Source: an uncultured Alphaproteobacteria bacterium
GTDB lineage: Bacteria > Pseudomonadota > Alphaproteobacteria > Rs-D84 > CACZYB01
Direction of reading: 5' to 3'
DNA length: 32,000 nt
Assembly: GCA_934246625.1 (NCBI GenBank)
Contig: CAKQHZ010000004.1
Location: forward strand, 1 to 32,000
Shown here piece after piece: positions 1 through 8,615 of the stretch (position 1 is its first letter; every line of letters starts with the position of its first letter). The notes under the pieces are model-generated. The model was not told the origin of the DNA, did no database searches, and saw only the letters and a program-made list of their open reading frames with translations. Made by a program: the position numbers and the translations under genes.

Positions 1-192
1 TCGTCTAGATTTAATATGTATTCATATTATGAATAATATCCCAAAATGTCAATAAATTTATGCACTTATATCCTCCCTCTTTACCTCCCCTCTATATATC
101 ATCTAAACCATCCTTTTTGTAGAGCTCAACTACAGAAATCTTCAAGAGGGATAGTATTAACTTTAACTTTAAAAAAGAAAAAGGAAATAAAT

Positions 193-648
193 ATGGTAAA
201 TTACATAAAAAATAACTTATCAAAAGATGAACAAATTTTGTTATCTTCAAAGTTCACATTACGATTTTATATACGTTTTGTTATAATTTTTTTATTTTTT
301 GAGTTGATTTTGTTTGTAAAAGATAGAAATGTTGCGTTGAAAGTCTTCTTTATCTTTTTATGTTTTGCATTATATACATATTTAAATACTAAATTTATTG
401 AAATGGCTATTACAAATAAGAGAATTATTCTTAAAAAAGGCATTATTTCAACATTAACAGAAGAAATTAGGATAGAAAAGTGTGAAAGTGTTAAACTTGA
501 TAAGGGAATATTTGGTGTATTTTTTGATTATGGGAGTATAATTTTTTCAGGAACGGAAAATTCAAAAATAGAATGGAAAGGAGTTTCAAATCCTGAGGGG
601 CTTAGAAAACAGATAGAAGATATTTTTGATATTTATCAAAAAAAATAA
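193..648 (+). CDS. small membrane protein with bacterial PH-like (bPH_2 / YdbS-YdbT type) domain
   Basis: Part of ORF 46..648. I moved the start to ATG 193 because AAGGAA (181-186) lies 6 nt upstream and the first 49 codons look non-coding. Two hydrophobic helices (FYIRFVIIFLFFELILF, VFFIFLCFALYTYL) are followed by ITNKRIILKKGIISTLTEEIRIEKCESVKLDKGIFGVFFDYGSIIF, a pattern I associate with bPH_2 proteins. Family call is from memory, not a search. Confidence 0.5.
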   Translation: MVNYIKNNLSKDEQILLSSKFTLRFYIRFVIIFLFFELILFVKDRNVALKVFFIFLCFALYTYLNTKFIEMAITNKRIILKKGIISTLTEEIRIEKCESVKLDKGIFGVFFDYGSIIFSGTENSKIEWKGVSNPEGLRKQIEDIFDIYQKK

Positions 649-710
649 TAATTTGATTTTGTCTTTTTTATGCAAATATGATATATAATTATTATTAACG
701 GCCAACTAAA

Positions 711-1133
711 ATGAAATTATTTACTATTGGATATAGTGGAAAAAGTGAAGCAAAGTTTTTTGAAATTTTGCGGGAGGCTGGCGTATCAAAAATTATTGAT
801 GTGCGAAGATTTAGGACTTCTAAATTTGTGTCATTTGCATCTGAGATAAACCTACAAAAAAAATGCAAATACAAATATGTTGTTATGGAACAGGTCGCTC
901 CATTATCCAAACTTTTAAGTGATTGGCAAAAGGGTGAAATTGCGTGGAGCTATTACGAACGAGAATACAAAAAATACTTGTCTGAAATTCATGCTGAAAA
1001 AATTTTTTCAAAAGATATTTTGGATAATGCTTGCCTGCTTTGTATGGAGGGAGAAGCCTTCCAATGCCACCGTCGACTTTTGGCTGAATATTTGAGTGAA
1101 AAGTTTAATGATGTTGAAGTTGTGCATTTGTAA
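711..1133 (+). CDS. DUF488 family protein
   Basis: 140 aa. The N-terminus MKLFTIGYSGKS..FFEILREAGVSKIIDVR and the C-terminus LLCMEGEAFQCHRRLLAEYL match the conserved ends of DUF488 proteins. Confidence 0.6.
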   Translation: MKLFTIGYSGKSEAKFFEILREAGVSKIIDVRRFRTSKFVSFASEINLQKKCKYKYVVMEQVAPLSKLLSDWQKGEIAWSYYEREYKKYLSEIHAEKIFSKDILDNACLLCMEGEAFQCHRRLLAEYLSEKFNDVEVVHL

Positions 1134-1169
1134 TAATTCAATTATCTTTGTTATTGTGTGGGTTAACCT

Positions 1170-1196
1170 CCACAAGAGGAGTATATCCTCTTGTGG
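1170..1196. terminator. perfect 11-bp stem hairpin between convergent genes (possible bidirectional terminator, no clear U-tract)
   Basis: ccacaagagga (1170-1180), loop gtata (1181-1185), tcctcttgtgg (1186-1196). It sits between the DUF488 stop (1133) and the HTH gene stop (1226). Confidence 0.4.
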
Positions 1197-1225
1197 TAAT
1201 TCTACATAATTGGTTCTTTCTATTC

Positions 1226-1459
1226 CTACCCCTCTAAATACTTAGAGAATTGCTCCCAGGAAAGACCAGTCGCCCTCATAACCTTACAAATACTTTCCGT
1301 AGATGGCCATCTGAACTTGCCACTAGGATAAAACCTCTTACTCTTATTAAATGCTGTAGCATCAAGACCTGCCTTTTTAGCCAAAGCAGAAACAGAAATA
1401 CCGTTTATGTATGCAATCTTGTCAATAGTCCCCCAGATTTTAGAATGTTCTGTATCCAT
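1226..1459 (-). CDS. small helix-turn-helix (XRE/cI-like) transcriptional regulator
   Basis: Part of ORF 1226..1507. I placed the start at ATG 1459 because AAAGGAG lies just upstream on the minus strand. GISVSALAKKAGLDATAFNKSKR...WPSTESICKVM resembles the N-terminal DNA-binding domain of phage-repressor-like regulators common in Alphaproteobacteria. Confidence 0.65.
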   Translation of the reverse strand: MDTEHSKIWGTIDKIAYINGISVSALAKKAGLDATAFNKSKRFYPSGKFRWPSTESICKVMRATGLSWEQFSKYLEG

Positions 1460-1519
1460 AACACAACTCCTTTGATTATAACTCTCTTTTACGACAATCT
1501 CATACAATGCATATTACAA

Positions 1520-1548
1520 CTTATACTAGAAAATAAGAAGAAATGCAA
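1520..1548 (-). promoter_or_regulatory. candidate sigma70-type promoter for the HTH gene
   Basis: On the minus strand: TTGCAT (1548-1543), 17-nt spacer, TATAAG (1525-1520). Confidence 0.3.
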
Positions 1549-1578
1549 GAGGAAGATATTCTTATCGTGGGGGATAAG

Positions 1579-1605
1579 AAAAAAGAGCAGGGCAAACCAT
1601 ACTCT
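1579..1605 (-). terminator. intrinsic terminator of the predicted tracrRNA
   Basis: Minus strand reads AGAGTATGG-TTTG-CCCTGCTCT, a 9-bp stem with one mismatch and one G-U pair, then TTTTT (plus-strand A-run 1579-1583). On the plus strand the same hairpin has no following T-tract. Confidence 0.55.
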
Positions 1606-1680
1606 TTAAAATTGTGAATTTTTCATCTTATTGACTACTAGACATTTAATTCCAATACAAATAGTTATCAATAAATTCAC
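1579..1680 (-). ncRNA. tracrRNA: predicted tracrRNA (anti-repeat 1635-1657, ends approximate)
   Basis: Plus-strand 1635-1657 (ctactagacatttaattccaata) is identical to 23 nt of the reverse complement of the CRISPR repeat. ttg (1631-1633) extends the match across a 1-nt bulge (A1634). On the minus strand it has a consensus-like promoter upstream and a hairpin plus U-tract terminator downstream. Confidence 0.7.
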
Positions 1681-1686
1681 ATTTTT

Positions 1687-1716
1687 ATTATAATATTAAA
1701 TACTTGCATTTGTCAA
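1687..1716 (-). promoter_or_regulatory. candidate tracrRNA promoter
   Basis: On the minus strand: TTGACA (1716-1711), 18-nt spacer, TATAAT (1692-1687). The predicted start is near 1680. Confidence 0.5.
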
Positions 1717-1733
1717 TATTTTTATTTTATAAT
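1704..1733 (+). promoter_or_regulatory. candidate cas9 operon promoter
   Basis: TTGCAT (1704-1709), 18-nt spacer, TATAAT (1728-1733). AAGGA lies upstream of ATG 1763. Its -35 region lies back-to-back with the -35 of the tracrRNA promoter. Confidence 0.45.
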
Positions 1734-1762
1734 ATCCTTATATTAAATAAAGGAATTTTATT

Positions 1763-4700
1763 ATGGCTTATAAATTTGCATTTGATTTAGGATCTAGTTC
1801 TTGTGGTTGGGCTGTTGTTGAAGTTGATGAAAATCAAAATGTTTTATGTTTGAAAGATATGGGAGTACGTATTTTTCCAGATGGTAGAAATGATAAGAAT
1901 CCAGAATCTCTTTGTGTAAATAGAAGGAATAAAAGAGAATTAAGGCGAAGGTTTGATAGAATCCTTTTGAGAAAGAAAAGATTATTAGGTATTTTGAAAT
2001 CTAATAATATGGCAGATTTTCATTTAGATAATAATAAAAATTCTGAAGATTTTATACAAAATAATCCATATTATTTGAGAGCAAAGGCAGTTTATGAAAA
2101 AGTTTCTTTGAGTGAGTTAGGACATATATTTTTTAATCTTTGCCAAAGAAGAGGTTTTAAAAGTAATAGAAAAGAAATTAAACAAGATAAAAAAAATGAT
2201 GAAGGTTTACAAAGTGCAATAAAACGATTAAGTTTACTTTTATCTAATAAAACTTTAGGGGAATATCTTTATGAAACATATTGTGATTATTGCAATAATA
2301 AAGATGAAAAAAATAATGTAGATAAAATAAGATTTTCAGAACAATTTGATAAAAATAAAAAACTTAAAAATGATGCTTTGTATCCAACAAGGGAAATGTA
2401 TGAATCTGAATTTGAAAAAATTTGGGATGTTCAATCTAGGTTTTATCCATCTGTTTTAAAAGATGATTTAAAAAAAGAACTCTATGATGCAATTTTTTAT
2501 CAGAGAAATTTGCATCCTCAAGAAAGAGGAAAATGTATTTTTGAATCAGGTGAGTATAGAATATATAAGGCACATCCTTTATTTCAAAAATTTAGAATTC
2601 TACAGACAATAAATCAATTAAAAGTTATTGATAATAGTGGTAAATTAAAGCCTTTTGAACAAAGGGATAAATTAAAAAATATTTTATTTAATTCTTTTGA
2701 TAAAGCAAATAAAAAAGGTGAAATAACTTGGGGAAATTTGAAAAAATTATTAGGGGTTGATAAGTTATTTCATTTTAATCTTGAAACAGAAAAACGAATG
2801 TCTTTGTCTGTGGATACTACAGCTTTTATTCTTTCAAAAGAGGATTATTTTGGTGATAAATGGTTTGAATTGTCTGATATAGAAAAATCAGAAATTGTTG
2901 ATGATTTATTAAGTGATAAGAGTGATGAAGATGTTAAATTAAGTTTATTAAAATATAATTTATCAAATTTGCAAATTGATAATATTTTAACAGCACCGTT
3001 AGAAGATAATGTTGGTTCACTTTCTTTGAAGGCAATTTTGAAACTTATCCCTTTGTTAGAAAAAGGGTATTTATATAATGATGCTTGTAGAGAAATATAC
3101 AAAACACATTCTGATTTATATAGTGAAGAAAAAATGGAAAAGTTGCCTTATTATGGTCAAATATTAAGAACATCATGTATATCTGTTAAAGAAGGTGATG
3201 GTAGTTTGGATGAACAAAAATATGGTAGAATTACTAATGTAACTGTTCATATTGCACTTAATCAACTTAGACAAGTTGTAAATAGTTTAATTGAAAAATA
3301 TGGTAAACCAAATTTTATATCTATTGAAGTAGCAAGAGATTTGAAGGCAGGAACAAAACAACGTAAAGAAATTATGCAAAGACAAAAAGAGAATGAAAAG
3401 TATAATAATACTATAGTTGATTTCTTAAATGAACATAATTTTAAGGTGAATAGAGAAAATATTCAAAAATATAAATTATGGAAAGAGTTATCTGATAATC
3501 CCACTGATCGATGTTGTGTATATACAGGTAAGCCAATAAGTGAAACGGATTTATTTTCTCCTAATGTTCAAATAGAACATATACTTCCATTTTCAAGGAC
3601 TTTGGATGATAGTATGGCAAATAAAACTTTGTCTTATAGTGATGCAAATTATTATAAAAAGGAGAGAACTCCTTTTGAAGCATTTGCAAATAGTAAAGAT
3701 AGTCGATTTGTTTGGCATGATATTGTTGATAGAGCTCTTAAACTTCCTGCTAATAAGTCTTGGCGTTTTGAAGAAAATGCAATGGATAAATTTAAAAAAG
3801 ATAATGATTTTATTGCAAGAGTTTTGAATGATACAAGGTATATGTCTAGGATTGCTGTATTATATTTAAAGTGTTTATTTGATAAAGAACATAAGTCAAA
3901 TGTTTTTGGGCTTCCTGGTTCAATGACAAGTTTGTTACGTGAGGCATGGGGATTGAATGTACTTAAAGATAAAAGAAATGACGATACTTATAGAGCTTTG
4001 CATATCCATCATGCAATTGATGCTTTTGTTATTGCCTGTATGACAAGAAGTCAAATGCAAATTTTGGCAAAAAATGCTGATAAAATAGAAAAAGAGGCAA
4101 TAGATGCTTCTGGACAAATAAATTATTCAGATCAAAAGGAATGGAGAAAAAAACTTGTTGGTGATAAAAAAGATCCTATTGATAATTTTGATAGAGATGG
4201 ATTTTTTAGAAAATGTGAAAATATAGTTGTTTCCTATAAATCAAAACTGAAGAATCCTAAAAATACAAAGAATACTGTTGGTGCTTTGCATGAAGATACA
4301 GCTTATAATTTATTGGATTTTAAAAGAAATAAAAAAGGAGAATTAACTTCACAAACAAAAGCAATTTTTGAGTGTAGAGTTCTTATTTCTGATTTAAAGG
4401 AAAAAGATTTAGTTAATGTTCATGATAGTTATGCTGAAAAGTTAGTTAGAAATAATGATCAAAATCTTTTAGGTGAATTTTTAGAGTATTGTAAAGCTTG
4501 TGGTAAGAAAAAAATAAGAGTTAAAAAAGAAGTTGATTTTTCTAATTATGTGCCAGTGTTTAGATCAAAGCAAGAAAGAGACGCTTATCATCTTGCTTAT
4601 GAAAATTGGTATAAAGAAACTGGCAAGGGTAATAAGGTAAAAGAAAAAGCTCTTATGAAAGTTCTTTGTGATGAAGCCAAAAAAGCATATAAATGGTATG

Positions 4701-5122
4701 TAAGTGGTAATAATTTTTGTGCTGATATATATCAAATAGATCCTAATGATAAAGTTTTTGTAAAAGAACGTGGACAATATAATGTTGAAATAATTTCGAA
4801 TTATATGGCTATGTTGAATAAAGGAGAACCTTTGTGGAAAAAGAAATATCCAAAAGCTCGTCGTATAATAAGATTGAAACAAGATGATCAAATTATGTTG
4901 GAATTTGATGGATGTAAATATATTTATAGGGTTAGAGGTTTTGGTTTAAATAAACAATTTTACTTAAGACATAATAAAGATACAAAAGATACGAATCGTA
5001 GTCTTAGCCCTTATATTAATGATCTCATAAAAATGAAGATAAGAAAAATTTATGTTTCACCAATAGGTGATGTTATTGATAATGGTTTTGATACAAAATG
5101 GAGTAATAAAGATGATAAATAA
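1763..5122 (+). CDS. cas9: CRISPR-associated endonuclease Cas9, type II-C-like (1119 aa)
   Basis: RuvC-I FDLGSSSCGWAV (Asp8). Arg-rich bridge helix RRNKRELRRRFDRILLRKKRL. RuvC-II ISIEVARDL (Glu522). HNH QIEHILPFSRTLDDSMANKTL (His606). RuvC-III HIHHAIDAF (His750, Asp753). It is followed directly by cas1, cas2 and the array. Confidence 0.97.
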   Translation: MAYKFAFDLGSSSCGWAVVEVDENQNVLCLKDMGVRIFPDGRNDKNPESLCVNRRNKRELRRRFDRILLRKKRLLGILKSNNMADFHLDNNKNSEDFIQNNPYYLRAKAVYEKVSLSELGHIFFNLCQRRGFKSNRKEIKQDKKNDEGLQSAIKRLSLLLSNKTLGEYLYETYCDYCNNKDEKNNVDKIRFSEQFDKNKKLKNDALYPTREMYESEFEKIWDVQSRFYPSVLKDDLKKELYDAIFYQRNLHPQERGKCIFESGEYRIYKAHPLFQKFRILQTINQLKVIDNSGKLKPFEQRDKLKNILFNSFDKANKKGEITWGNLKKLLGVDKLFHFNLETEKRMSLSVDTTAFILSKEDYFGDKWFELSDIEKSEIVDDLLSDKSDEDVKLSLLKYNLSNLQIDNILTAPLEDNVGSLSLKAILKLIPLLEKGYLYNDACREIYKTHSDLYSEEKMEKLPYYGQILRTSCISVKEGDGSLDEQKYGRITNVTVHIALNQLRQVVNSLIEKYGKPNFISIEVARDLKAGTKQRKEIMQRQKENEKYNNTIVDFLNEHNFKVNRENIQKYKLWKELSDNPTDRCCVYTGKPISETDLFSPNVQIEHILPFSRTLDDSMANKTLSYSDANYYKKERTPFEAFANSKDSRFVWHDIVDRALKLPANKSWRFEENAMDKFKKDNDFIARVLNDTRYMSRIAVLYLKCLFDKEHKSNVFGLPGSMTSLLREAWGLNVLKDKRNDDTYRALHIHHAIDAFVIACMTRSQMQILAKNADKIEKEAIDASGQINYSDQKEWRKKLVGDKKDPIDNFDRDGFFRKCENIVVSYKSKLKNPKNTKNTVGALHEDTAYNLLDFKRNKKGELTSQTKAIFECRVLISDLKEKDLVNVHDSYAEKLVRNNDQNLLGEFLEYCKACGKKKIRVKKEVDFSNYVPVFRSKQERDAYHLAYENWYKETGKGNKVKEKALMKVLCDEAKKAYKWYVSGNNFCADIYQIDPNDKVFVKERGQYNVEIISNYMAMLNKGEPLWKKKYPKARRIIRLKQDDQIMLEFDGCKYIYRVRGFGLNKQFYLRHNKDTKDTNRSLSPYINDLIKMKIRKIYVSPIGDVIDNGFDTKWSNKDDK

Positions 5123-6011
5123 TATAATTGAAATTTCGACTGATAATAAAGAGTTATCGTCATATAAAGGATTTTTGAGAATAAAGGAAAGAGGAGAGGT
5201 TGTTAAAGACCTCTCTTTTGATTCTATACATGCTCTTATTATAACAGGTAAAGCAGTTGTTTATACAAATAATTTATTACAAAGTTTGTGTGAATATGGA
5301 ATTCCTCTTATTATTTGTGGAAATAATTTTTTACCTTGTGGTATTTTGACATCTTTTGTTGGTCAACGACAACAAACAAAAATTCAACAAATACAAATTG
5401 ATACTTCTAAACCTTTGCAGAAACAATTATGGGCAGAGATTGTTAAAGAAAAAATTAGAAATCAATCAAGAGTATTAGAATTATTGGGGAAAGAAAATAA
5501 ATTAAGAAATCTTCATAATGAAGTTTTATCTGGAGATACTTCTAATGTAGAAGCTAATGCTGCAAGATTATATTTCCCGGCTTTATTTGGTTGCAATTTT
5601 ATTAGAAATACTGATAAAAATGGGATAAATAGTTTTCTTAATTATGGATATGCTATAATTAGAGCTTGTGTTGCAAGATTTGTTATTTCTGCTGGATTAA
5701 ATCCTTCATTTGGTTTGCAACATCATAATAAATTAAATCCATTTTGCTTAGTTGATGATTTAATGGAAATTTACAGACCATTAGTTGATGTAAAAGTATA
5801 TCAAATATTTGATGGATTAGACGATGAAAAAAAAGAACTTTTACCAGAGTATAAACAAATTTTAGCCAATGTTTTGCATATAGAAATTTATAATGGAGAT
5901 GGATTTTCTGAGCTTGTTAATATTATTCAAAATGATATATGGGCTTTTGTATCTTCTTTAAAGGGAAAGAAAGTAAAGTTTGAGTTTAACAAATATATTA
6001 TAAGGAAATAA
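5112..6011 (+). CDS. cas1: CRISPR-associated endonuclease Cas1 (type II)
   Basis: ORF 5067..6011. I placed the start at ATG 5112 (MINNIIEIS...), with GGAG at 5099-5102, overlapping the cas9 stop by 11 nt. LIICGNNFLPCG, QLWAEIVKEKIRNQ and NSFLNYGYAIIRA align by eye with type II Cas1 such as the Neisseria protein. Confidence 0.93.
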   Translation: MINNIIEISTDNKELSSYKGFLRIKERGEVVKDLSFDSIHALIITGKAVVYTNNLLQSLCEYGIPLIICGNNFLPCGILTSFVGQRQQTKIQQIQIDTSKPLQKQLWAEIVKEKIRNQSRVLELLGKENKLRNLHNEVLSGDTSNVEANAARLYFPALFGCNFIRNTDKNGINSFLNYGYAIIRACVARFVISAGLNPSFGLQHHNKLNPFCLVDDLMEIYRPLVDVKVYQIFDGLDDEKKELLPEYKQILANVLHIEIYNGDGFSELVNIIQNDIWAFVSSLKGKKVKFEFNKYIIRK

Positions 6012-6013
6012 TT

Positions 6014-6364
6014 ATGGATGATAATCAATATTTTAAAACAAAAGGATTAAAATATATGTGGATGATGATAATGTTTGATTTGCCTACTGATACAGCAGAA
6101 GAAAGGCATAAAGCAACAAAATTTAGAAATTTTTTGTTGGATAGTGGATTTGAAATGGCTCAATATTCTGTATATATGCGTTTTACAGGGACAAGAGAGA
6201 ATTCACAAAAATATATAAAAATGGTGAAAGATAATAATCCTTGTACAGGGGATGTATGTATTTTATTTTTTACGGATTATCAATTTGGAGAAATTCAGCA
6301 TTTAAGTAAGTTTGATAGACCTAAAAAATTAGCTGAGCAACCTGCTCAATATCAATTATTTTAA
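6014..6364 (+). CDS. cas2: CRISPR-associated endoribonuclease Cas2
   Basis: 116 aa, with AAGGA 7 nt upstream of the ATG. MIMFDLPTDTAEERHKATKFRNFLLDSGFEMAQYSVYMRF is the typical Cas2 beta-alpha-beta core. Its position directly after cas1 fits. Confidence 0.9.
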   Translation: MDDNQYFKTKGLKYMWMMIMFDLPTDTAEERHKATKFRNFLLDSGFEMAQYSVYMRFTGTRENSQKYIKMVKDNNPCTGDVCILFFTDYQFGEIQHLSKFDRPKKLAEQPAQYQLF

Positions 6365-6455
6365 CGAATCGGTTTAATTTTACGATTAAAAAAATTGTAA
6401 ATTTATACATAAATCGAATCGTAAATATAGATTTTTATATTTTTGATTAGTATAT

Positions 6456-6483
6456 AAAAAGCCCATTTTTTCTGGGCTTTTTT
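6456..6483. terminator. bidirectional intrinsic terminator between cas2 and the CRISPR array
   Basis: aaaaa-gccca (6461-6465), loop ttttttc, tgggc (6473-6477), tttttt. The stem is extendable by the flanking A/T runs, so it has a U-tract in either direction. Confidence 0.6.
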
Positions 6484-6490
6484 GTGGTCT

Positions 6491-6790
6491 ATTATAACAT
6501 ATTGGAATTAAATGTCTAGTAGCAACTACCTTGCAATTTAAAACCATCAACCCCTTATTATAACATATTGGAATTAAATGTCTAGTAGCAACTTATAAGG
6601 GGTAATAAATATGCAAACAGATATTATAACATATTGGAATTAAATGTCTAGTAGCAACTTTAACATACACGATGAATTTTTCATCTGGATTATAACATAT
6701 TGGAATTAAATGTCTAGTAGCAACAAAGTATAAAGGCATTTATGGCACAACTTAATTATAACATATTGGAATTAAATGTCTAGTAGCAAC
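6491..6790 (-). CRISPR. CRISPR array of 5 identical 36-nt repeats and 4 spacers of 30 nt, predicted to be transcribed on the minus strand
   Basis: Repeat attataacatattggaattaaatgtctagtagcaac occurs at 6491-6526, 6557-6592, 6623-6658, 6689-6724 and 6755-6790. Spacers are 6527-6556, 6593-6622, 6659-6688 and 6725-6754. The strand is inferred from the GTTG...TGTTATAAT orientation and the tracrRNA strand. Confidence 0.97.
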
Positions 6791-6791
6791 T

Positions 6792-6805
6792 ATTATTTGG
6801 AATTA
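6792..6805. repeat. truncated CRISPR repeat remnant abutting the last repeat
   Basis: attatttggaatta equals repeat nt 1-5 (attat) plus nt 12-20 (ttggaatta) with nt 6-11 missing. It begins 1 nt after repeat 5 with no spacer between them. Confidence 0.4.
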
Positions 6806-6808
6806 CCT

Positions 6809-7618
6809 TTATTTCTTTTCACTAAATTTTTTCTTTAGGAAGAAGCCGAAGCTGATAGCAAGAAGTATGCTTACCAAAATTATGTAGTAAAAGATATTTT
6901 GTTTGTTTGCAAATGGAAGTCGGACATTCATTCCATAAAGACCTGAAATACTTGTGATAATAAGAGCTGAAACGTTGACTATTGTCAATGATTCCATTCG
7001 TTTGTTTGTTATATTATTTGTGATAATTTCAAGAGTACTTTTTAAATTTGATACATTTTTTGAATATGAAACTGCGGTTTCAAGGGCCTGATCATTTTCA
7101 ATTTTTGCATCGTTTATAAACTCATTATTTGGGGTTAGTGTTATGATTTTGTTTAAGACTTGCAAATTACCCTTTATTGCAATTATATATTCGTCCAAGT
7201 CATTTTGAAGTTCAAAAAGAGTCAACAAATCTTTGTTTTTAACATGGGTTTTTGAGGAGATTTTTATCTTTTTTATTTTTGTATTCATTGTTTTAAGGCT
7301 TTTAAAATATGCTTCTGTGATTTTATAAATTGCATCAACAATGATTAAAGTTGTGTTTTCTAATGATTTATCTAATTCAAAAGGAAAGTCCTTTTCATGC
7401 AAAAAGTAGGCAACATTTTTGGTTAAATAAATTCCCAATGTTTCGACATCGTTTTTTAACGGATACTTTAAAATGATTTCTGTATAGTCGTTTTTGCCCA
7501 AAAAACGTGCGATTTCGTTAGAGTCCTGGACATCTAAAAATAAATCCTCGTCAATGTTATATTTGGATATAATTTCCTTTGCATCTGAGTCTTTTATATT
7601 TATATCTTTTATAATCAT
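6809..7618 (-). CDS. short CorA-family divalent metal ion transporter-like protein
   Basis: 269 aa. The C-terminal SGLYGMNVRLPF (GMN signature) lies between two hydrophobic helices (VSALIITSISGLYG and IFYYIILVSILLAISFGFFL). AAGGA lies upstream of the ATG. It is shorter than typical CorA. Confidence 0.65.
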   Translation of the reverse strand: MIIKDINIKDSDAKEIISKYNIDEDLFLDVQDSNEIARFLGKNDYTEIILKYPLKNDVETLGIYLTKNVAYFLHEKDFPFELDKSLENTTLIIVDAIYKITEAYFKSLKTMNTKIKKIKISSKTHVKNKDLLTLFELQNDLDEYIIAIKGNLQVLNKIITLTPNNEFINDAKIENDQALETAVSYSKNVSNLKSTLEIITNNITNKRMESLTIVNVSALIITSISGLYGMNVRLPFANKQNIFYYIILVSILLAISFGFFLKKKFSEKK

Positions 7619-7760
7619 TTTAGTTCCTTATTTTTCTCTCTAATTTCAATATGATAGTATATATTTTTTTTTATTGCAATTTATTTATTTTTTTATTGAC
7701 ATTTTTGAAATATATTCTATTGTTTTTAAACAAAAAAAATAATTTTTTACAGGGGTTATT

Positions 7761-8615
7761 ATGAAACAAGTTGTTCGTTCTAATCAAGAAATTTTTAATT
7801 CATTATTGAATTTTAAAAAGTTTATTGTGTATCTTCCTTTTTTTAAAAAGTATAATTTTGATATTTTAAAGGAGGAAATGTTTTCTGAAAAGGCTGGGGT
7901 GTTTGATAATCCTAAGCAAGTGGCTGGTTTTGTAAAAGATTATACTCTTATTGTATATTTGAATAGATTGAATTCTGGGTTTGAAGAATTTTATACTAAT
8001 ATTATTACTAGTTATCCTCAATATTTGCATATTCCTTCTCGTATATTTGAATTGTATGCTGATTTTGGTATGATAAAGTTATTAAATAAAGGGGGAATAG
8101 ATATTTCAAAAACAGATGTATTTAAGAATGATGAGTCAATTTATTCAAAATGTTATTCAATGAAAAATTTAGATTATAAAAAATATTTGAAAAAGTGGGA
8201 TTCCCTTGATCCTGTAGATTTGATAGTGAAATATTATCCTAGAGATAATGTTTTTGATGTAAAAATGGATAAAAATGATTATCAAGTTACTATTAAAAAA
8301 ATTAACAATGAAAATGTAAAAGTTAAAACTTTTATTGATTTTAATGATAATGCGTATAAGTCTTTTTATGATTTTTATAAGTTCGCTGGGTTTTATTCAA
8401 GAACTATTGATAAATATAAATTAAGGTCTATGGTAAGAGCTTCACAAACAGAACAAGAATTAAGAAAAAATTTATTTGATTTTAATGATTTCTTGGTTGA
8501 AAAAAATAATTATCCTCTTTCATTTAATTTTAAAAATTCAAATAAGGAAAAGGAAATTATTATTCACGAAGAATTGAAACAAAAGTTGTTAAAAAATACT
8601 TATTCAATGAGATAA
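7761..8615 (+). CDS. hypothetical protein (no recognisable domain)
   Basis: 284-aa ORF with AGGGG upstream of the ATG and a terminator downstream. It is K/N/F/Y-rich and I recognise no motif. Confidence 0.5.
   Translation: MKQVVRSNQEIFNSLLNFKKFIVYLPFFKKYNFDILKEEMFSEKAGVFDNPKQVAGFVKDYTLIVYLNRLNSGFEEFYTNIITSYPQYLHIPSRIFELYADFGMIKLLNKGGIDISKTDVFKNDESIYSKCYSMKNLDYKKYLKKWDSLDPVDLIVKYYPRDNVFDVKMDKNDYQVTIKKINNENVKVKTFIDFNDNAYKSFYDFYKFAGFYSRTIDKYKLRSMVRASQTEQELRKNLFDFNDFLVEKNNYPLSFNFKNSNKEKEIIIHEELKQKLLKNTYSMR

Follow-up and report, generated by a model that had tools for sequence, protein, structure and literature searches.

The type II-C system of Campylobacter jejuni has crRNA promoters embedded in its repeats and a short tracrRNA with a compact tail. 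The arrays of both Neisseria meningitidis and C. jejuni run in the direction opposite to the cas operon (PMC3737331), and crRNA promoters embedded within the repeats have been described for type II-C systems (PMC12477760). For tracr-L, the long-form tracrRNA and natural single guide of Streptococcus pyogenes, Workman et al. required 11 bp and a PAM (bioRxiv 10.1101/2020.05.21.102756), and tracr-L has also been reported in some type II-C systems (10.64898/2026.06.01.729453).

Here, we analyzed a stretch of DNA of 32,000 nt (hereafter the window, meaning the whole stretch) and found that a type II-C CRISPR-Cas9 system with the order cas9-cas1-cas2-array very probably has its tracrRNA gene at positions 1579-1680 of the minus strand. 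A tracrRNA at these positions had been proposed in an earlier sequence-only reading, which our computations support. The genes of the locus and the elements around them are as follows:

1704-1733, plus strand: probable promoter of cas9, TTGCAT-18-TATAAT, arranged back to back with the -35 element of the tracrRNA (read from the sequence)
1763-5122, plus strand: cas9, encoding a protein of 1119 aa (TIGR01865, E 1.8e-176)
5067-6011, plus strand: cas1 of type II, NMENI class (TIGR03639, E 2.6e-75)
6014-6364, plus strand: cas2 (TIGR01573, E 5.5e-17)
6456-6484, both strands: hairpin between cas2 and the array with A-runs and U-runs on its flanks, terminator-like both ways
6491-6790, minus strand (predicted crRNA sense): CRISPR array of five identical 36-nt repeats and four spacers of 30 nt

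The three cas genes form a cas9-cas1-cas2 operon, and neither csn2 nor cas4 was found at this locus. The array is predicted to run opposite to the cas genes from promoters inside its repeats, in the style of N. meningitidis and C. jejuni. On both counts, the locus can be classified as a type II-C CRISPR-Cas locus. The closest solved structure to the Cas9 was that of N. meningitidis Cas9 (E 9e-65, with an alignment over residues 3-779), with whose catalytic residues D8 (the aspartate of RuvC), the histidine of HNH and the HHAIDA motif align; the catalytic residues are intact and the cas9-cas1-cas2 set is complete. The nearest Cas9 in the databases is 61% identical and the protein is known from metagenomes only; it is an uncharacterised Cas9 from an uncultured gut bacterium. 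The locus lies among housekeeping genes in DNA of about 30% G+C, and the next ORF after the array encodes a CorA-like transporter. Homologues of the RelA/SpoT protein came from metagenome bins throughout, the nearest named species being Roseospirillum (45% identity), and the relatives bear conflicting labels ('uncultured proteobacterium' and 'Bacteroidales'), so that the organism is placed only loosely. It should be noted that the listed cas1 ORF begins at a GTG codon and shares 56 nt (5067-5122) with the end of cas9; the match to the Cas1 family starts at residue 20 and thus the true start of cas1 is probably further downstream. The sequence at 1704-1733 is a probable cas9 promoter, which scored under the threshold of the promoter scan; a similar cTTGc/t...TATAAT pattern was seen in the related loci described below.

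Read in the minus sense, the repeat is GTTGCTACTAGACATTTAATTCCAATATGTTATAAT. All five repeats contain, on the minus strand, the sequence TAGACA-16-TATAAT with an upstream TG (11 of 12 promoter positions matched), and repeat-embedded promoters were likewise present in the relative L007. Strong promoters occur in the repeats on one strand only, the minus strand, and the crRNAs are therefore predicted to be minus-sense. The sequence-only reading had assumed this without stating it, and the premise is backed by the promoter and TG in every repeat. Transcription from the promoter embedded in each repeat would start the crRNAs inside each spacer, independent of any leader promoter. The hairpin at 6456-6484 (plus strand: -12.1 kcal/mol, z-score -3.4; minus strand: -13.5 kcal/mol, z-score -5.9) could stop both the cas operon transcript and the minus-sense transcripts of the array.

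A 23-nt core of the repeat was absent, in either orientation, from the searched literature. No match to phage records could be observed for 12 spacers by BLAST, and the 3' 20-mers of three of the four window spacers had no match in IMG/VR. The one IMG/VR match (20/30) fell inside a repeat-protein ORF of a giant-virus bin and was judged irrelevant, and neither a PAM nor a protospacer was found in the phage records or IMG/VR. Spacer 3 (crRNA sense CCAGATGAAAAATTCATCGTGTATGTTAAA) shares an exact 14-mer, AGATGAAAAATTCA (6673-6686, minus strand), with the tracrRNA nexus (1615-1628, minus strand). This is the longest match of any spacer to the window outside the array, the next longest being 11-mers. 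The 14-mer covers the PAM-distal half of the spacer only, and hence spacer 3 is no functional self-target; the match may be a chance occurrence in AT-rich DNA.

The predicted tracrRNA gene is composed of the following elements:

1711-1716, minus strand: -35 element TTGACA (12/12 promoter match)
1687-1692, minus strand: -10 element TATAAT (12/12 promoter match, 18-nt spacing)
1579-1680, minus strand: predicted tracrRNA of 100-102 nt (consensus promoter and terminator; layout repeated in 11 relatives)
1658-1680, minus strand: 5' leader of 23 nt, GUGAAUUUAUUGAUAACUAUUUG (inverted repeats, centroid fold, compensatory changes)
1630-1657, minus strand: anti-repeat, predicted to pair with crRNA repeat nt 1-27, with U1634 as a one-base bulge
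1611-1632, minus strand: linker and short nexus hairpin, AAUAAGA-N(3-9)-UUCACAAU (conservation, folds)
1579-1607, minus strand: intrinsic terminator, a hairpin plus U6 (centroid fold; a hairpin in each of 11 relatives)

The anti-repeat is able to pair with the repeat of its own locus. The sequence-only reading had reported that plus-strand 1635-1657 matches 23 consecutive nt of the reverse complement of the repeat, and this proved exact: the segment, CTACTAGACATTTAATTCCAATA, is identical to the minus-sense repeat over all 23 positions from nt 5 to nt 27 and is the sole match outside the array even when three mismatches were allowed (shuffles expect 0). In a local-alignment scan of the whole window, it scored 24, compared with at most 14 elsewhere. 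The further match beyond a bulge at 1634 was also recovered, with TTG at 1631-1633 corresponding to repeat nt 2-4 past one extra base, A1634, on the plus strand. At the RNA level the pairing is extended by two wobbles (G1-U at 1630 and U28-G at 1658). The register thus places repeat nt 2-4 against 1631-1633 and nt 5-27 against 1635-1657, the whole duplex covering nt 1-28. The energy calculated for this repeat/anti-repeat duplex was -39.1 kcal/mol, compared with -13.2 kcal/mol for the wrong-sense repeat. The distal third of the repeat (nt 29-36) pairs poorly at the window locus. At the other end of the duplex, the spacer-proximal one, the tracrRNA tail is adjoined as in known dual RNAs.

The gene adjoins cas9 in the correct strand geometry and has a promoter and a terminator of its own. 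Its layout fits published type II-C biology, in which anti-repeats are mostly located upstream of cas9 (PMC3737331). The minus-strand promoter at 1716-1687, which had been called near-consensus, scored 12 of 12. The hairpin and U-tract, which had been read at 1605-1579 on the same strand, were placed at 1607-1579 by folding: the stem pairs 1607-1600 with 1589-1582, including inner GG/CC pairs, and UUUUUU at 1584-1579 overlaps its 3' arm. A simple terminator scan did not flag this hairpin because its stem is interrupted. Consensus rules only were used to predict the ends of the transcript, from which we infer a 5' end at G1680 (7 nt past the -10 element and 82 nt upstream of cas9) and a 3' end in the U-run at 1584-1579; the resulting 100-102 nt agrees with the approximate length of 100 nt expected by the sequence-only reading. 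Between anti-repeat and terminator, the nexus hairpin UGAA-AAA-UUCA (1625-1615) has a stem of only 3-4 bp. An Rfam scan of positions 1-8000 (E <= 10) gave no tracrRNA or related match and none in 1500-1760; since tracrRNAs are too diverse for one model, this says little on function.

For comparative analysis, we collected the contigs of Cas9s 41-61% identical to that of the window, as well as further loci via a conserved DNA motif. DNA upstream of cas9 was available for 11 loci (L001, L004, L006, L007, L008, L010, L014, L017, L018, L019 and L020), of which L004 and L006 have duplicates in L012 and L013, respectively. The DNA-pattern scans recovered the true relatives L010, L012, L013 and L014; two other matches of these scans, L011 and L015, were attributed to chance, and a genome scan with the Cas9 as the sole query found nothing.

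In all 12 loci (the window and its 11 relatives), an anti-repeat lies upstream of cas9 on the opposite strand and is preceded by a TTGAC(A/T) promoter. The order of elements in the 11 relatives is TTGAC(A/T) with a -10 box, the leader (not in L017), the anti-repeat and (G/U)UCAAUAAG or (G/U)UUAAUAAG, after which come a short variable stretch, UUCACAAU in most loci and finally a hairpin with a U-run. The -10 box of the relatives is TATAAT, TAGAAT, TAAAAT or TATATT, located 16-18 nt past the -35 element. Across the relatives AATAAG is invariant and TTCACAA nearly so. The anti-repeat changes with the repeat in related loci: in L008, L018 and L019 the repeat differs and the anti-repeat differs in step, the cognate duplexes of these three loci having energies of -28, -30 and -49 kcal/mol, respectively, compared with -10 to -26 kcal/mol for non-cognate ones. 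Terminator stems differ in sequence by lineage and all of them form hairpins (-9 to -18 kcal/mol). Counted over the 8 nt that follow the hairpin, the 11 leader-bearing loci, one of which is that of the window, have 3-7 U when read in the minus sense, compared with 0-3 for the plus sense.

Several of the loci, including that of the window, have peculiarities of their own. An IS1595-family transposase gene was found in L016 (1320-2500) directly after AAUAAGAAUUAUUC of the tracrRNA, whose tail is cut off; this locus is without cas1 and cas2, has kept two repeats and looks like a decaying system. A T/A homopolymer of about 20 nt lies between the tracrRNA promoter and cas9 in L008 (~2960-2985) and L021 (1-41), where variation in its length might change promoter spacing or strength. 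In L019, cas2 and cas1 are located downstream of cas9 on the opposite strand (5816-7034), and the tracrRNA, repeat and leader helices are retained. A small ORF of the window (1226-1459, minus strand), which comes immediately after the terminator of the tracrRNA and shares its strand, has a good ribosome-binding site and a weak match to Cro/C1-type helix-turn-helix proteins (E 3e-4); it is absent upstream of cas9 in the relatives with visible called genes. The motif TTGCATTT occurs at 1703-1711 between the divergent promoters, at 1776-1783 within cas9 codons 5-7 and, inverted, at 1541-1549 past the tracrRNA terminator. In relatives, the copy between the promoters is preserved in the form of overlapping -35 elements, and the remaining two copies are probably due to chance.

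The 5' leader of the predicted tracrRNA is complementary to two parts of the same molecule. In the first helix, P1, positions 1680-1673 pair with 1614-1621, the 5' GUGAAUU(U) being complementary to AAAUUCAC of the nexus. In the second, P2, positions 1674-1662 pair with 1628-1640: UUAUUGAU, continued by AACUA, complements the anti-repeat at its spacer-proximal end, together with the AA that follows it. Both helices are visible as DNA inverted repeats and in the centroid fold. When leaders were shuffled, only 0-26 of 1000 shuffles reached the observed energy, and the genuine leader was better in all 11 leader-bearing loci. For the diverged loci L006, L018, L019 and L020, the cognate 3' region was the best partner of the leader among all eleven. 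We counted pairs by anchor-based scripts with slid-register and shuffle controls. Over 11-12 related sequences with hand-anchored registers, the six core pairs of P2 were formed in 63 of 66 cells (at most 40/66 when slid by 1-3 positions) and the five core pairs of P1 in 44 of 45 (at most 25/45 when slid likewise). Compensatory changes were found in both helices: in P2, G-C is replaced by A-U in L006, L019 and L020 and U-G by C-G, and beyond the core of P1 there are swaps of U-A to A-U. Aligning the 11 tracrRNAs by MAFFT for RNAalifold did not give a structural alignment, and the consensus obtained was meaningless. An extension of P1 upstream of the predicted start, visible as a 15-nt inverted repeat, was rejected as it is not conserved in relatives.

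Pairing of the leader with both the nexus and the spacer-proximal anti-repeat is expected to give the free RNA the fold of a single-guide RNA. The central anti-repeat would then be an open loop in the modeled free RNA and the natural entry point of the crRNA. In L017 (2330-2430, minus strand), a leader is absent, with the anti-repeat following immediately on the end of the promoter. At this locus, the nexus takes the form of a local hairpin of 9 bp that ends at the same UUUC, compared with a weak one of 3-4 bp elsewhere, and it may compensate for the lost leader helix.

Could 1579-1680 be a solitary repeat left by an array rearrangement, decayed and now untranscribed or functionless? It has been suggested that tracrRNAs may derive from degenerate repeats (Chylinski et al., PMC3737331), and the window locus does show decayed pairing in the distal repeat part. 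However, a relic would not retain a promoter with a 12/12 match and a terminator, the AAUAAG...UUCACAAU tail is retained in 11 diverged relatives and the anti-repeat sequence changes together with the repeat, which makes such an origin extremely improbable as a full account. It is equally hard to believe that the functional transcripts are plus-sense, with crRNAs made from the cas2 side and a tracrRNA whose 1631-1657 segment possibly lies in the cas9 5' UTR. A promoter-like site, TTATCA-18-TATAAT, which matches at 10 of 12 positions, is indeed present on the plus strand (1665-1694), and the DNA between cas2 and the array is AT-rich. Yet the former is located downstream of the anti-repeat and therefore cannot drive it, strong repeat promoters occur on the minus strand only and a plus-sense RNA would have its tail next to the spacer-distal end of the duplex, which is the wrong one. 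U-runs follow the hairpin in the minus sense only (11 of 11 leader-bearing loci), and no plus-strand terminator was found before cas9, in agreement with the sequence-only reading, which had located promoter and terminator together on the minus strand only. Neither a dead repeat relic nor a plus-strand RNA explains the conservation patterns of repeat and anti-repeat, terminator and promoter.

Other alternatives concern the leader. The RNA might also act as a natural single guide of the tracr-L type, in which the leader would provide a crRNA-like lower stem and the bases upstream of it would direct Cas9 to repress transcription of cas9 or the tracrRNA. The leader segment AUUGAUAACUA does resemble repeat nt 1-10 (GUUGCUACUA), and 10 of its first 11 positions form pairs with the anti-repeat, as the stem criterion of a 2026 preprint demands (10.64898/2026.06.01.729453), and the leader pairing is conserved with compensatory changes. 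When at most one faulty pair was allowed in the first 11 bp, the stem was present (10/11) in the window, L001, L004, L010 and L019, whereas L006, L007, L008, L014, L018 and L020 had 2-4 faults. On the other hand, no more than 6-9 nt remain between the predicted start and the stem, and these pair with the nexus. A target of at least 11 nt between the tracrRNA gene and cas9 +60 was present in none of the nine loci tested. The best seed match was 6 nt, and a 10/12 match at codons 3-7 of the window cas9 was not conserved. No guide of at least 11 nt with a perfect target and a PAM at the cas9 promoter was found, with just 8 nt left past the predicted start, and no match was conserved over nine loci. 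Such a guide function is thus very unlikely, and tracr-L-type autoregulation, having neither a guide nor a conserved target, was rejected. We also consider it unlikely, if conceivable, that the sole tracrRNA form of this Cas9 lineage is a self-closed, sgRNA-shaped molecule whose leader mimics repeat nt 1-10 and also caps the nexus, and which could load into Cas9 without a crRNA as an inert or only weakly targeting complex. If this were the case, the amount of free (apo) Cas9, or the expression of cas9, would be tied to the supply of crRNA, and the molecule would correspond, in a compact type II-C form, to tracr-L or to the sgRNAs by which phages sequester. Most likely, the leader fold is a conserved 5'-terminal helix that would stabilise or pre-organise the RNA, and a regulatory or Cas9-sequestering role is a minority possibility.

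In the reading that we prefer, a tracrRNA with a folded leader, transcription would start at about G1680 from a consensus sigma-70 promoter placed back to back with the cas9 promoter and would end at about 1579 at the intrinsic terminator. In the free RNA, the 23-nt leader would fold back on the spacer-proximal anti-repeat and the nexus, most likely as a protective 5'-terminal helix, and would leave the central anti-repeat open for the crRNA. The anti-repeat (1657-1630) would then pair with repeat nt 1-27 of the minus-sense crRNAs, with one bulged U near the spacer-proximal end. We infer that the RNA binds Cas9 and is active with it, the 3' tail (AAUAAG, the short nexus hairpin and the terminator hairpin) serving as the scaffold for binding.

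These results supply the missing RNA component of an uncharacterised type II-C Cas9 of 1119 aa. With the RNA ends and the duplex register, a dual-RNA or single-guide scaffold could be synthesized, followed by determination of the PAM. We designed a fused scaffold, GUUGCUACUAGACAUUUAAUUCC-GAAA-GGAAUUAAAUGUCUAGUAGUCAAUAAGAUGAAAAAUUCACAAUUUUAAAGAGUAUGGUUUGCCCUGCUCUUUUUU, in which repeat nt 1-23 are joined through a GAAA loop to tracrRNA nt 28-102, and it folds as intended. Leaving the leader aside, a tracrRNA is an expected part of such loci and is what a specialist would look for at that position. The conserved folding of the leader adds a little to the picture of possible stabilisation or regulation in type II-C tracrRNAs.

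Among known systems, S. pyogenes tracr-L offers a parallel for the leader: the tracrRNA mimics the beginning of the crRNA repeat in its 5' region, which pairs with the anti-repeat on the spacer-proximal side, and hence the free RNA takes an sgRNA-like shape (bioRxiv 10.1101/2020.05.21.102756). In contrast to tracr-L, the window system is of type II-C and has a single promoter and a single short form without a loop of 80-130 nt. In addition, its upstream 6-9 nt are sequestered by the nexus, and no conserved target of at least 11 bp lies near the cas9 promoter. With C. jejuni type II-C, the locus shares an array opposite to the cas operon, whereas no sequence similarity was detected and the Cas9 is larger here (1119 aa versus 984 aa; PMC3737331); in the search against solved structures, the C. 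jejuni Cas9 chains ranked far below those of N. meningitidis.

The locus also resembles that of N. meningitidis (Nme1Cas9/Nme2Cas9). Both have a minimal cas9-cas1-cas2 locus with a Cas9 of similar size, a 36-nt repeat that starts with GUUG and ends in a -10 box, and crRNAs that run, by prediction for the window, opposite to the cas genes from repeat-embedded promoters (PMC3737331, PMC12477760). The N. meningitidis tracrRNA and the predicted one are both about 100 nt long and have AAUAAG after the anti-repeat. Beyond short motifs, however, the tracrRNA sequences are unrelated, and the C-terminal, PAM-interacting part of Cas9 could not be aligned (alignment residues 3-779). The window tail is unusually short (~50 nt), much shorter than that of N. 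meningitidis, with only a 4-bp nexus hairpin and a terminator. Furthermore, the window tracrRNA differs in its conserved 23-nt leader pairing with anti-repeat and nexus. In function and position, the RNA predicted here appears to be an ordinary type II-C tracrRNA, and the one that it most closely follows in logic would be that of N. meningitidis.
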